64,000 nt of DNA from an uncultured Peptococcaceae bacterium. GTDB taxonomy: Bacteria > Bacillota > Dehalobacteriia > UBA4068. The DNA lies in assembly GCA_964372025.1 (NCBI GenBank), contig CAYJPF010000003.1, positions 3,334 to 67,333 on the forward strand, in the 5' to 3' direction. Shown in pieces: positions 13,551 through 52,958 of the stretch. Made by a program: the position numbers and the translations under genes. Under the pieces are notes generated by a model, which was given only the letters and a program-made list of their open reading frames with translations, had not been told where the DNA came from and ran no database searches. The number at the start of each line of letters is the position of its first letter. Position 1 is the first letter of the stretch.

Positions 13551-13680
13551 ATATGTAAAGAAGCACAGACTATTCGTGGTAGTTTGAGGCTGATAATAAA
13601 TTTGTTAAATACCTTTCCCGGGGGTGCCACGAACACTCTTGGGAGAGGCATTTTTTATCTTAGCAAATAAGGAGCATAAA

Positions 13681-14352
13681 ATGAAACTTGAAACTAATAC
13701 TGGAGTGTATTTTTTATTCAACGATGACAAATTGGTGTATGTTGGAATGAGCTCTCATTTATCGAGACGCATTCAGCAATCTGTTGCCGAACGGAAAGCT
13801 GAAGGGCATGACATTACCGATTTCGCATATCACACAGTTAAAACGCGCAAAGAAGCTGAAATCTTAGAGAGAGTGTTGATATCAGAGTTGCGACCACCCG
13901 CTAACCGGATGTTCAACACGGACGATAGTCAAATGCCTACGATACAGCATCGCATCAACGTTTCCGAGCTTTCTAAAACAAGCTTGAATGCAGTAGAAAT
14001 TGTATTGCCACCTCCTATTGATGTTTCAGCTGTTTTTTCTCATTCCATGCTAATAAGTTCTGCATGGATAAGCCTTAGCCCCAAACAACAATCCTTGTAT
14101 TTGCACTGCAAGGTAGAGCAGGTGTACCAGCATCTGGATGAAAAAGAAGAACACCTTGAAGAAAATTGTTTTTATTTTAATAAAAAAATCTGGAATAAAA
14201 AGTATAAGCTGTACTCGGAAACGTCAGATGCACGTTTGGTGAAAGATATGCGTGGTTTAATTCAAAAAGGTTTTGTTGATTGCATACACTCGGGCCAAAA
14301 GACAAGAACGAAAAACGTCTATCGTCTTTCTGAAAGATGGCAGAACATATGA
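13681..14352 (+). CDS. GIY-YIG nuclease domain protein
   Basis: GVYFLFNDDKLVYVGMSSHLSRRIQQ = GIY...YIG...R motif; 130-nt leader from upstream promoter. Confidence 0.65.
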   Translation: MKLETNTGVYFLFNDDKLVYVGMSSHLSRRIQQSVAERKAEGHDITDFAYHTVKTRKEAEILERVLISELRPPANRMFNTDDSQMPTIQHRINVSELSKTSLNAVEIVLPPPIDVSAVFSHSMLISSAWISLSPKQQSLYLHCKVEQVYQHLDEKEEHLEENCFYFNKKIWNKKYKLYSETSDARLVKDMRGLIQKGFVDCIHSGQKTRTKNVYRLSERWQNI

Positions 14353-50472: not shown

Positions 50473-51777
50473 TCAAGCCTTGCGCCTCGCTTTGCTGTTG
50501 ACACCGGCAACCATCCCTGTATAGTGCGCTTTAAACTCAGGAACAGAGCTGTAATCATAGTAAGTAGCATACAACGCTGAAACATAGTCATCATTTGCTT
50601 CGTTAGAGTTTGAAAACTTACCGGTCTTCTCTGACTCTGTATAGTCTTCCATCTGAAAGATAAGAGATTGTATTTCCGTACTACCATCATCGATAACCAT
50701 AATATCCTCGTTCTGAACTGCCCTTTGTAGGCTTTGAACAAGCATACGCTTTTGAGTGCCCTGCTCGCCTATTGGAGTAACATTGCAGCCACGTTTTCGC
50801 AACTGCCCCTCAACAAGCATATTACCAAGAGTAAGAACGCAAATCTCGGCATTGTTATAAGACTTAGCCCAGAACGCAACCTCGTCAAGCTGGTCATCGT
50901 CAATCTTGCCGTACATGTCTATAGCACGAACTATGTTATCAGTAGACATCTCTCGTATAACAAGCACGGGCATATCTCCACTACTACCGGATGCAGGGTC
51001 ATAACCAACGCGATACATAGTAGCTACTTTAGGTTTCTGCAAATCCTGTATTTCCTTACGAAGCTCTTCTTTAGTCTTGCCAAGGTTGGCCTCATACACA
51101 TCGTGTACGCACCGCTCCTTGAAATTAGAGAACACAGTGCCACCGCTCTCTAAAAACTCAGCTCCGAAGTCCTGTCGAGCCTCTTTTCCGTATCTGCGGT
51201 ACAAGCTTTCCTTGTAGCTAATAACCTCTCCGGTTTTAGTCTTAACAGGTTGCTTAAACTCTTTGTCTATCTCGGGGTTCTCCCAACTGGGAAGCTGATA
51301 GCTAATCCAGTTACTATCGAAGTTAGGGTGGCTTCTCTGTCCCCAAGTCCAGATATTATAAAAGAAGTTCTTGCCCAGTGGCGAACTGTTAACAACAAGT
51401 CTGCCACCTTTGCCACCGATGCCTCTGCCCGGAGATTTTAGACGTGCTTCTATGTTTCTCATAACCGTCTTTAAATCTTTAACACGAGCAGCCTCAGTGA
51501 TTGAACAGAAATCAACGCCGACACCGACAAGGCTTTGAGTATCGTATGCAGACCTGCACTCAATTACACAACCGCCGATAAGCTCCATCGTTTTAGTACC
51601 GTTGGAAATATCTACAATCCACTCTTTGGGGATAAACGCTTTGAGTTCTCTCCAGTTCTGGTTTATAATACGGTCAATAGGCGCAAGTATCCAACACAGA
51701 ATACTCGGCACGAGGGTAGGCTGTTCGATATGTCTGTTCTCGTTAAGCAACTGCATAATATCGAAAATCATCTGCAT
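50473..51777 (-). CDS. terL: terminase large subunit, 3' exon (ATPase remainder + RNaseH-like nuclease)
   Basis: IGGCVIECRSA, VDFCSITEAA (Walker B-like), nuclease motif YRVGYDPASGSSGDMPVLVI; frame open upstream only to TGA at 51803-51805, so exon 2 begins no further upstream than 51802 (likely 51790-51802). Confidence 0.8.
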   Translation of the reverse strand: MQMIFDIMQLLNENRHIEQPTLVPSILCWILAPIDRIINQNWRELKAFIPKEWIVDISNGTKTMELIGGCVIECRSAYDTQSLVGVGVDFCSITEAARVKDLKTVMRNIEARLKSPGRGIGGKGGRLVVNSSPLGKNFFYNIWTWGQRSHPNFDSNWISYQLPSWENPEIDKEFKQPVKTKTGEVISYKESLYRRYGKEARQDFGAEFLESGGTVFSNFKERCVHDVYEANLGKTKEELRKEIQDLQKPKVATMYRVGYDPASGSSGDMPVLVIREMSTDNIVRAIDMYGKIDDDQLDEVAFWAKSYNNAEICVLTLGNMLVEGQLRKRGCNVTPIGEQGTQKRMLVQSLQRAVQNEDIMVIDDGSTEIQSLIFQMEDYTESEKTGKFSNSNEANDDYVSALYATYYDYSSVPEFKAHYTGMVAGVNSKARRKA

Positions 51778-52172
51778 GTTGGTAGCACGGTCTTTCCTTT
51801 GTCATTCGCTTCAGCTCGCAACACTGAAACCGCCTTTCGGCTGCTCACTCTTTCAAGTGAGAGTGGATTATATGTCACCCCGTAAGGGTAAGGATTTTTC
51901 TTCCCGCATTAGCTTCGGGCTTTACTCTCCCGTAAGGAGATAATCTCTGAACGTCTCCCATATCTTTCGACTTAGGGCTTTCGCTGCTGAACTTCCATTG
52001 TTACTGCACTTAGCACCTTTCGGCTTTTATTTCAGCTTATGCAATCCCTACGTTTTTTCCGCTTTCGCACTTCGCACTTGCCGTTTCCAGCTTTGCTTTA
52101 GTGTAGGGCTTTAGGATTTACCAGCAATTAACTCTTAAATACGCACAAATTGCTCTGTACGCAGGGCGACTT
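51778..52172 (-). ncRNA. ORF-less structured intervening sequence in terL (candidate group I-type self-splicing intron)
   Basis: about 395 nt with stops in all frames splitting terL immediately after the P-loop-encoding region; contains GNRA hairpins (GCGAAAGC x2, GCCGAAAGGC, CUCACUU-GAAA-GAGUGAG) and the 11-nt tetraloop-receptor module CCUAAG-ucGAAAga-UAUGG. Confidence 0.6.
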
Positions 52173-52958
52173 TTACCCCGCACGTGCTCCTGCTGCTATA
52201 CATGCAAATCTTTTCTTCTGCATATCTTTGTGGAACTTCTTCTGCCACGGATAAGGCTTGTAGCTGAGAGAAGAAACTACATAGGCAACCTCTTCACCTT
52301 TTTTCTTAGCACCTTCATGTGCTTTCTTGTTGCGACACGAATGACAAGTTTTAAAATCTGAGTAACGATTAACATAAGGCTTGTAGTCTTGCTCAAATAC
52401 TGTTCCACACTCAGCACACTTTGTAAATTGTTCTCCATTTGCAAACTGCTTGTCAAGTGGGTCTACATGCCTAATGTACTTAGGAACCTCCGGTGGTTTT
52501 CCAGCCGCAGCGTCTTGATTTGCCTTAATCCTCTGCTGACGTATCGACTTGCGCAATGCAAGCATATCAGGGTGCGTTGACCCTAATGTCTCCTCAAGGC
52601 TACGCATCATCTCGTCAACGTCTTCATCAGACAGCTCTTCCTTCTCTACAACACTATCATTGTCAAACAAGTCAACCATAGAACGGTCAACATCTTCTTC
52701 ACTCATAGGCGGCGGTGCAGGCTTACGACCAATATTGCCTTCAGGTTTTGGAAGATTGCGAAGAAGGTCAGGGTTCTTATTGATAGCCATTTGTTCTTCC
52801 CGTGTACGAAGAGGGATTTTATACTTCTTCAACACATCACGCACACTCGGTCTGGAATAACCCATTCGTTCTGCAACATGAGTTATAGACATTCCATTGG
52901 AATACAGGTCGCAAATCTCTTTCTGCTCGACGTGAGTTATTTTATACGCATATCCCAT
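52173..52958 (-). CDS. terL: terminase large subunit 5' exon with N-terminal HTH + zinc-ribbon DNA-binding extension
   Basis: ends YKPYPWQKKFHKDMQKKRFACIAAGARAG-stop (TerL N-terminus/P-loop start); N-terminal ITHVAERMGYSRPSVRDVLKKY HTH; CAECG...CHSC. Confidence 0.7.
   Translation of the reverse strand: MGYAYKITHVEQKEICDLYSNGMSITHVAERMGYSRPSVRDVLKKYKIPLRTREEQMAINKNPDLLRNLPKPEGNIGRKPAPPPMSEEDVDRSMVDLFDNDSVVEKEELSDEDVDEMMRSLEETLGSTHPDMLALRKSIRQQRIKANQDAAAGKPPEVPKYIRHVDPLDKQFANGEQFTKCAECGTVFEQDYKPYVNRYSDFKTCHSCRNKKAHEGAKKKGEEVAYVVSSLSYKPYPWQKKFHKDMQKKRFACIAAGARAG

Follow-up and report, generated by a model that had tools for sequence, protein, structure and literature searches.

A probable ORF-less group I intron of the group B IStron ribozyme type, predicted to splice after a G, in the Walker A motif of a phage terminase gene

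In a 64,000-nucleotide (nt) stretch of DNA from an uncultured Peptococcaceae bacterium (contig CAYJPF010000003.1; the whole stretch is referred to here as the window), the gene for the large terminase subunit (TerL) of a tailed phage is divided between two minus-strand open reading frames (ORFs), and these are exactly the ones that an initial annotation, made from the letters alone, had listed. The upstream ORF (52173-52958) encodes 261 amino acids (aa) and ends …YKPYPWQKKFHKDMQKKRFACIAAGARAG-stop (that is, …FACIAAGARAG-stop), and the downstream ORF (50473-51777) encodes 434 aa and matches the PHROG family phrog_2, 'terminase large subunit' (E=2.6e-23). The phrog_2 match, together with an alignment of homologues that places the break inside the Walker A motif, just ahead of its K (GARAG|KDR), bears out the proposal in that annotation that TerL is split at this motif. 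As for the intervening RNA, for which a group I-type intron had been proposed, nucleotide homology, covariation and uninterrupted homologues that read through the junction all point the same way, and we conclude from these comparisons that the spacer is very probably a group I intron of subgroup IA2, with a ribozyme of the 'group B IStron' type.

Exon 1 (52176-52958; this and all other features of the gene and its intron lie on the minus strand) was delimited from the ORF list and by alignment with the uninterrupted homologue P0005, with which it is colinear through …ICIAAGARAGKDRWSNMQ. It encodes an N-terminal helix-turn-helix (HTH; aa ~10-50, with Pfam matches to HTH_23 and HTH_28 that are both below cut-off), an acidic linker, a CxxC...CxxC zinc ribbon and the start of the ATPase domain with the first half of Walker A. 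Exon 2 (50473-51795), recognised by phrog_2, the structures 4ZNJ/4ZNI and tblastn, consists of KDRATN plus the 434-aa ORF and holds the second half of Walker A (GK-D), the remaining ATPase domain and the nuclease domain. It begins 18 nt upstream of ATG 51777, with K-D-R-A-T-N encoded in frame in that interval; the ATG itself corresponds to a conserved internal Met of the uninterrupted homologues and is no start codon. The in-frame stop that closes the exon 2 ORF on its 5' side is the TGA at 51802-51804, one base away from the position first given (51803-51805), and the TAA that ends the exon 1 ORF is formed by bases 1-3 of the intron.

The order of a Walker A ATPase and an RNase H-like nuclease, with a portal gene adjoining, is that of a TerL, and 3' of it follow genes for portal, head-maturation protease, major head protein, tape measure and tail; the locus is the packaging and head module of a tailed phage. 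By tblastn, annotated TerL genes of Thermus, Microbacterium and Tunturiibacter phages are 21-26% identical, and the window TerL is at most 26% identical to the TerL of any isolated phage. We assign the source phage to an uncultured siphovirus-like lineage outside the Herelleviridae. The protein carries an N-terminal extension of 235 aa (aa 1-235, encoded within 52176-52958), made up of the HTH, the acidic linker and the zinc ribbon (…FTKCAECGTVFEQDY…FKTCHSCRNKK); nearly all homologues keep the ribbon, and P0005 has the HTH as well. No small terminase was recognised as a separate gene, and the upstream ORFs of 153 aa and 350 aa have no Pfam or PHROG match; the extension may supply a DNA-recognition function.

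The splice junctions can be predicted from the protein. Uninterrupted homologues read AAGARAGKDRWSNMQ and AAGARTGKDRASNMQ across the junction (P0005 …ICIAAGARAGKDRWSNMQLL…, P0006 …VIAAGARTGKDRASNMQMI…), with G-x-R-x-G-K-D/N invariant. Because the P-loop is invariant, the mature mRNA must read GCG GGG AAA GAC CGU, with predicted ligated exons GCG GGG|AAA GAC (…GCACGUGCGGGG|AAAGACCGUGCU…); the alignment of both exons with an uninterrupted homologue, which the initial annotation had called for, thus yields the exact insertion site. Joining 52176 to 51795 gives a conceptual TerL of 701 aa (about 79 kDa) with Walker A G-A-R-A-G-K-D intact. Over 566 aa this protein is 54% identical to P0005, the alignment running ungapped through the junction, and against the P74-26 TerL ATPase (PDB 4ZNJ/4ZNI) its GARAGKD falls on the Walker A sequence GRQSGKS. 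With the junction fixed by homology, the intron runs from 52175 to 51796, 380 nt (UAAAAGUC…GACAAAGG), in place of the interval 51778-52172 first proposed; it reads UAAAAGUCGCCC … GAAUGACAAAGG, with U 52175 as its first base and the terminal (omega) G at 51796. We also considered 'GKT' in the ORF at 51768-51878 (…DKGKTVLPTCR*) as a Walker A motif and rejected it as coincidental, since the homologues have GKD or GKN.

The 380-nt RNA (45.5% GC) contains 6, 6 and 9 stops in its three frames, in agreement with the earlier report of stops in all of them, and its longest open stretch is 41 codons; as had been claimed, no homing endonuclease ORF lies inside it. A scan with Rfam models, also suggested at the outset, gave a full-length minus-strand match to Intron_gpI (RF00028; 52184->51844, model positions 1-253) at 28.8 bits, with E=3.6e-5 in a 1-kb search and 0.0023 in the whole window, where it is the sole RNA family match. 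Group II models gave no match to the window sequence in the 1-kb search, even at E<=10. The score of the group I match is below threshold, a point taken up below. By blastn, the intron is 68-71% identical over about 290 nt to phage ribozymes (E-values to 5e-31), and the matching segments are unannotated gaps between coding sequences (CDSs). They come from Kochikohdavirus phages of Enterococcus (EF1TV among them), from Staphylococcus phages (PMBT8 and Silviavirus and Kayvirus relatives) and from Clostridium botulinum phage c-st.

Homologous intervening sequences were also found in the same place in metagenomic TerL relatives (L002/L003, L055/L056 and, truncated at the 5' end, L053 and L054). 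These intron-bearing relatives were obtained through exact-protein look-ups of roughly 430-aa 'truncated' homologues; a single-protein scan of viral contigs gave no matches, and a scan of viral contigs with an alignment query gave only uninterrupted or intein-bearing TerL relatives.

Covariation among these sequences supports a group I fold. Seven intron sequences were aligned with MAFFT, and the window sequence served for assigning the structure; the formal count excludes P1 and P8, since MAFFT misaligns their variable loops. Over 16 helices, 93.2% of the cells hold standard pairs, against 77.9 +/- 1.2% in column shuffles and at most 42% with slid partners, and double-sided changes occur in 35 of 69 pairs, a number reached by none of 500 shuffles. 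Every core helix is supported, and P2-P9.2 covary, P7.1 and P7.2 included. The minimum free energy (MFE) fold recovers most of the assigned helices (z = -2.65 against shuffles). All helices of the P3-P8 core, with its P3/P7 pseudoknot, were located, and the presence of P7.1 and P7.2 between P7 and the 3' strand of P3 places the intron in subgroup IA, phage IA2 type, with P9.1 and P9.2 as peripheral elements.

Following the intron from its 5' end, the P2 hairpin GUACAG/UUGUGC (52143-52160) has two compensatory pairs and 89.7% of cells paired. The 5' strand of P3, AAGAG (52132-52136), pairs by covariation with UCCUU (51890-51894); the alignment contains AAGAG/UCCUU, UUGGG/UCCAG, CAGUG/UACUG, GAGAG/UUCUC and CGGUG/UACCG. 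The P4-P5 domain (51985-52126; helices 3-9 of the covariation count) is reproduced by the MFE fold and comprises P4 (52121-52126/51985-51990), P5 (52114-52116/51994-51996; all three pairs compensatory, as UCC/GGA, GGG/CCC and CCC/GGG), P5a (52103-52108/52046-52051; four of six pairs compensatory), the GAAA hairpins P5b (GCUG-GAAA-CGGC, 52080-52091) and P5c (UGC-GAAA-GCG, 52060-52069), and an extension at 52005-52043 with a receptor-like UAAGC…GCUAAG motif and a GCC-GAAA-GGU hairpin. P6/P6a (51957-51984; helices 10-11, by covariation) is GAAA-capped and contains an 11-nt GAAA-tetraloop receptor (CCUAAG…UAUGG). The initial annotation had recognised this receptor in its GAAA-capped hairpin, which sequence, MFE fold and comparative pairing now identify as P6. 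One of the two GCGAAAGC hairpins that it had also drawn is supported, and the second (51977-51984) is instead the 5' strand of P6, which reads GGGAAAGC, GGGACAUU or ACCACUUC in relatives. The GAAA tetraloops that it had pointed out belong, with the receptor, to P5b, P5c, P6, P9 and P9.1, all of them hairpins on which the MFE fold and comparative pairing agree.

P7, whose 5' strand GAUUA (51941-51945) pairs with UAAUC (51866-51870) to form the pseudoknot with P3, is 100% paired with two compensatory pairs (GACUA/UAGUC, GACCA/UGGUC, GAUUA/UAAUC). P7.1 (UCUCC-UUACG-GGAGA, 51926-51940) and P7.2 (CCCG…CGGG, 51903-51919) are likewise 100% paired, with three and two compensatory pairs respectively. 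The P8 hairpin ACCC-UUACG-GGGU (51877-51889) aligns poorly, and a hairpin is present here in all relatives. P9 (51844-51861), found as an inverted repeat and supported by covariation, is the 7-bp stem CUCACUU-GAAA-GAGUGAG noticed earlier, which the MFE fold also contains; it is followed by P9.1 (GCC-GAAA-GGC, 51832-51841) and P9.2 (51810-51828), in which all five pairs are compensatory. While all five stem pairs of P9.2 covary, its loop GUUGCGA is nearly invariant in all relatives, which suggests a tertiary contact.

P1 (52161-52181), read directly from the sequence, is the unusual element. The exon bases GCGGGG (52181-52176) and the intron U 52175 pair with the guide GCCCUGC (52167-52161), so that in the helix GCGGGG(U)/(G)CCCUGC the U.G wobble uses the first intron base and the 7-nt loop (AAAAGUC) follows directly. 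Every exon join that yields G-K-D places a G at position -1. The last intron base is the omega G 51796, and a G likewise closes the introns of the relatives. The same G|U…GC arrangement of P1 occurs in L055, L003, EF1TV and PMBT8, with junctions …AGU GGG|UAAUUAGCCCC … AAUGG|AAA GAC in L055, …GGU AAA G|UGACGC … AAAAAGG|AC AGA in L003 and …ACG CAG|UAAGAUU … AAAACUG|UUC ACA in the Enterococcus tail-tube gene. As the related phage introns are deposited in GenBank without a join annotation, the exons of EF1TV were compared instead with intron-less alleles. These (phiM1EF22 and EF24C) read CAA UUC ACA UAC …, one base short of the canonical join, and all six downstream differences from the EF1TV exons fall at third codon positions of that reading frame, up to a shared stop position.

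Such behaviour has a published precedent. Tourasse, Stabell & Kolsto (2014; NAR 42:12333, PMC4227781) described group B IStrons as IA2 introns fused to insertion sequences (ISs) of the IS607 family, which sit after GG-ending sites and begin with U. In their P1 the U.G wobble is displaced by one pair, falling within the intron directly beside the loop, and for BcISt1 of Bacillus cereus, whose ligated exons and intron circles were sequenced, splicing occurs 'after a G instead of a U' (PMC4227781). The behaviour published for group B IStrons explains the G at -1 in the window intron, whose 5' boundary, …GCGGGG|UAAAAG as deduced from protein homology, obeys the same rule. Its 3' terminus is AGG, against CGG in group B IStrons, and its relatives end in UGG, AGG or CUG; a final GG or G is thus retained, the C is not. 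The relative in phage c-st is itself the IStron CbISt3 of the 2014 list, and IS607-type OrfA and OrfB follow its ribozyme.

Several observations weigh against the reading of the spacer as a spliced group I intron of this type. The 28.8 bits of the window match lie below the Rfam gathering score of 50, so that by the database test alone the assignment would fail, and the Intron_gpI model misses three homologous relatives (L003, EF1TV and c-st) at E<=0.01. P3 of the window contains one A.C mismatch, and the flank of P7 (51941-51950 and 51863-51870) reads CAGAG…UCCAC, against CAACG…UCUG in all six relatives. The last exon base, G 52176, is paired to C and violates the canonical U at -1 of group I introns; the explanation by group B IStrons leans on one experimentally studied relative, BcISt1, compared by description only, and splicing itself is deduced by comparing sequences. 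On the first point, the relative L055 scores 28.7 bits, and the general Intron_gpI model is insensitive to this lineage. As for P7, G 51948, the bulged A 51947 and C 51865 can be read as a Tetrahymena-like bulged A beside the G-binding pair, and the change in the flank is possibly a compensated switch to a single bulged A, as in Tetrahymena; alternatively it is possibly a defect with some loss of activity, and together with the P3 mismatch it leaves room for reduced activity of the ribozyme. What we regard as established is the identity of the gene, the split point, the fold as supported by covariation, the homology to known ribozymes and the sole junction that fits the conserved protein; that splicing occurs, and is autocatalytic, we infer from these.

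We suggest the following course of events. One TerL gene would be transcribed, with the packaging operon, as a precursor carrying the 380-nt IA2 ribozyme, which would fold into P1-P9.2. Exogenous guanosine would attack the phosphodiester after G 52176, the freed exon 1 would attack after the terminal G 51796, and the ligated mRNA, …GCG GGG|AAA GAC CGU…, would be translated into the 701-aa TerL. On the unspliced precursor, translation would halt at once, the intron opening with UAA. As the gene is split between the G and the K of Walker A, splicing is required if the phage is viable. As the window copy is without an IS, an AU-rich terminal repeat or a homing endonuclease, present-day mobility would be possible only in trans or by reverse splicing.

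The best surviving alternative rivals only the origin and mobility of the element, and not its splicing. It holds that the spacer is the remnant of a decayed IS607-type IStron, now without ORFs, which arrived by transposition (through a serine-recombinase TnpA at the GG core) and not by endonuclease homing, the ribozyme merely rendering the insertion harmless. We consider this possible, if rather unlikely. The element sits after GG and ends in GG, which is also true of IS607 and group B IStrons; its ribozyme is a close relative of that in the c-st IStron CbISt3, and the tail that follows P9.2 in c-st aligns with the 3' end of the IS-less introns, with the IS immediately after it. ORF-less IStron copies are known and have also been generated experimentally (PMC4227781). 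Against such an origin, tblastn of the c-st OrfA and OrfB gave no match below E=0.3 in the window, which also contains no second copy of the intron. The long 3' inverted-repeat stem-loop (15-34 bp, >80% AU) was not found, only 14 nt (GCGAAUGACAAAGG) following P9.2, and the 3' end is AGG, not CGG. The GGN^AAA boundary is occupied in several related phages, a pattern of site-specific homing and not of promiscuous transposition, and Tourasse et al. judged a comparable IS-less intron of Turicibacter to be a distinct element and no stripped IStron.

Canonical splicing after U 52175 would put one extra base into the ligated mRNA and truncate TerL; the gene would then be dead, and the genome defective or mis-assembled. 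The exon ends on the U of the P1 U.G pair in virtually all group I introns, and the Rfam alignment sets the conserved U of the model on U 52175. We nevertheless think this very improbable. The one-base 'excess' recurs across independent assemblies and is shared by more than 10 viable Enterococcus phages that have been isolated; no further frameshift disturbs either exon, each being intact and conserved (54-62% identity to homologues); and the BcISt1 experiment shows that this type of ribozyme excludes the U. Canonical joins were tried for the window and for L003 and rejected; a U-ending exon 1 with a G-ending intron loses the Walker A lysine (GARAG-Y-RATN and GARAG-DRASN) or shifts the frame into a stop.

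We give scarcely any credence to a TerL made as two polypeptides, a 261-aa DNA-binding or N-terminal protein and a 434-aa ATPase-nuclease starting at ATG 51777, with the spacer as a structured RNA that does not splice (for example a regulatory RNA or a degenerate intron). Gene callers do give two ORFs (the 434-aa product being P0001), and exon 2 is preceded by an ATG and by a stretch rich in purines (AAAGGAAAG). With the break between the G and the K of Walker A, however, neither piece would have a functional P-loop; KDRATN is conserved in frame though it lies outside the called ORF, the Met is internal and conserved in uninterrupted homologues, and relatives are mostly single polypeptides of about 560-570 aa, which also speaks against the possibility, raised by the initial annotation, that TerL homologues naturally exist in two parts. 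The reading of the spacer as a group II intron, or as an intervening sequence of some other class, is suggested by the group II introns in the same P-loop of related TerL genes and is effectively refuted: the window RNA has no GUGYG 5' end, no domain V and, in the 1-kb search even at E<=10, no group II model match, and its fold and homology are both group I.

The P-loop codons of TerL relatives are in fact occupied by four kinds of element, namely the window-type intron, a canonical group I intron, a group II intron and inteins; uninterrupted TerL genes are found in L001 and L005-L009. The canonical group I intron (L057:1657-1970 and L058) is shorter, has no P2-like hairpin and occupies exactly the same GGN^AAA boundary. 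The -1 base is the canonical U (UCG GGU|UAAAUAU…, P1 CGGGU/GCUCG), and the intron scores 71.7 bits against Intron_gpI, above gathering. The group II intron, ORF-less, about 590 nt long and with a domain V, is present in L042-L046 (L042:1919-2500; Logan SRR23823965_9688, ERR4191867_136497 and ERR14656837_222, ENA ERZ24773513, and ERR4096593) and scores 99-104 bits against RF02004 and 56-58 bits against RF00029, both above gathering. It begins with GUGCG in L044-L046 and with GGCUG/GGAUG in L042/L043, after an exon 1 ending …AGNRTGK + G and before an exon 2 reading …CUAU|AU AGA UAU (DRYTIM). Phage group II introns have been recognised only recently (PMC12350094). Inteins lie in the same Walker A loop in P0003 (742 aa; …ACGSR|CFTAN…LQHN|SGKNR) and in L004 (~2390-2500; …VHNNQITGN|SGKDF).

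Related ribozymes also occur in isolated phages. In EF1TV (L048:2443-2830; MK268686.1 55825-56212) and at least nine other Kochikohdavirus genomes, an unannotated ORF-less group I intron of 388 nt interrupts the tail-tube ('structural protein') gene close to its 3' end. The deposited EF1TV tail-tube CDS stops at the intron UAA and omits the last 11 codons (FTYLTSAKVK*), which are contiguous in the intron-less EF24C and phiM1EF22. In Staphylococcus phage PMBT8 (L047:1284-2842; MK893987.1 8947-10505), four tandem unannotated group I ribozyme cores, each with a …CAACGACUA… P7 motif, occupy about 1.56 kb between two 'hypothetical protein' CDSs, and it is the fourth that matches the 5' end of the window intron best (…AAAGAG|UAAAAGUAGCUCUGC). 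The portal gene of Staphylococcus phage Remus (L052:1937-5564; NC_022090.1 8301-11928), annotated only as 'similar to portal protein', holds a ribozyme segment 81% identical to window 51884-52001 together with a 'transposase' CDS, which looks like an IStron inside a phage portal gene. In c-st, a RAGATH-18 RNA (L049:4800-4861; 61 bits, above gathering) lies just 3' of the CbISt3 OrfB, in agreement with published descriptions of a TnpB guide (omega) RNA region in IS607 IStrons. In the window itself, the initial annotation had reported free-standing GIY-YIG and HNH-like genes. The former is present at 13624-14352 on the plus strand (Pfam PF01541, 25.6 bits against a cut-off of 22.6), about 38 kb from the intron, and no link between it and the intron site was established; the HNH-like gene was not confirmed.

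Group I introns in phage TerL genes and splicing after a G are both already known. What is new here is modest: an IS-less ribozyme of the group B lineage that interrupts an essential gene in phages which are uncultured and fall outside the Herelleviridae, and evidence that phages commonly harbour such copies without an IS. The 2014 survey reported the intron component of IStrons nowhere as a free copy, and IStrons only in Firmicutes and Fusobacteria (PMC4227781); the splice-after-G lineage is here extended from Firmicutes IStrons to IS-less introns in essential genes of uncultured phages. IS-less 'G|U…GG' introns were found in the window, in related uncultured phages and in Enterococcus and Staphylococcus phages. 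It is conceivable, albeit a speculation that we would expect to fail, that they form a widespread unrecognised phage lineage ancestral to IS607 IStrons (the IS having been inserted beside the 3' splice site) and still movable in trans by IS607-type serine recombinases via their GG boundaries; if true, mobilisation in trans would explain the colonised GG^AAA boundary inside the GxxxxGK P-loop. On the practical side, gene callers split the window TerL into two 'hypothetical' ORFs, as they do with many relatives and the Enterococcus tail-tube gene, and the G|U…G rule permits exact exon joins in annotation. The introns also offer compact natural substrates of 380 nt for studying the choice of a 5' splice site one base off the wobble pair, and the TerL P-loop hot spot clearly illustrates how selfish elements have their preferred refuges in the most conserved sites of essential genes.

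Among known systems, the best nucleotide match is the tail-tube intron of Enterococcus Kochikohdavirus phages (EF1TV, ECP3, phiEF17H and others), which is 71% identical over 292 nt, has the same P1 arrangement (…CAG|UAAG…ACUG|UUC) and is likewise ORF-less; it differs in its host gene and phage family and in an extra AU hairpin in the P1 loop. Other TerL genes interrupted by group I introns include those of Twortvirinae and of Lactobacillus phage LL-H. In the Bastillevirinae, 5 of 52 TerL genes contain group I introns, some of them experimentally spliced (PMC11878797). These known TerL introns mostly carry HNH or other homing endonucleases, have canonical splice sites as far as reported and occur in Firmicutes myoviruses, whereas the window intron belongs to an uncultured siphovirus-like lineage.

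Similar in kind, by description, is an IS-less IA2 intron of Turicibacter, which resembles CbISt1/CbISt4, lies at the site GGAGG and was judged a distinct element related to the ancestors of IStrons (PMC4227781). It is likewise free, of group B type, at a GG-ending site and without an IS or inverted-repeat stem-loop, but it is bacterial, while the window intron is phage-borne. With the group B IStrons BcISt1 and CbISt3/CbISt4 the window intron shares the IA2 architecture, P7.1/P7.2 and P9.1/P9.2, the GG-ending insertion site, U as first base, the shifted P1 U.G pair, G at -1 and a terminal GG, and it is 68.6% identical in nucleotide sequence to c-st CbISt3 over about 290 nt. It differs in being without OrfA/OrfB, the omega-RNA/RAGATH-18 region and the long AU-rich terminal stem-loop, and in occupying a conserved site in an essential gene common to related phages, whereas IStron sites differ from strain to strain. 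The window intron shares the ribozyme lineage and the boundary rule of group B IStrons, yet it is no IStron.

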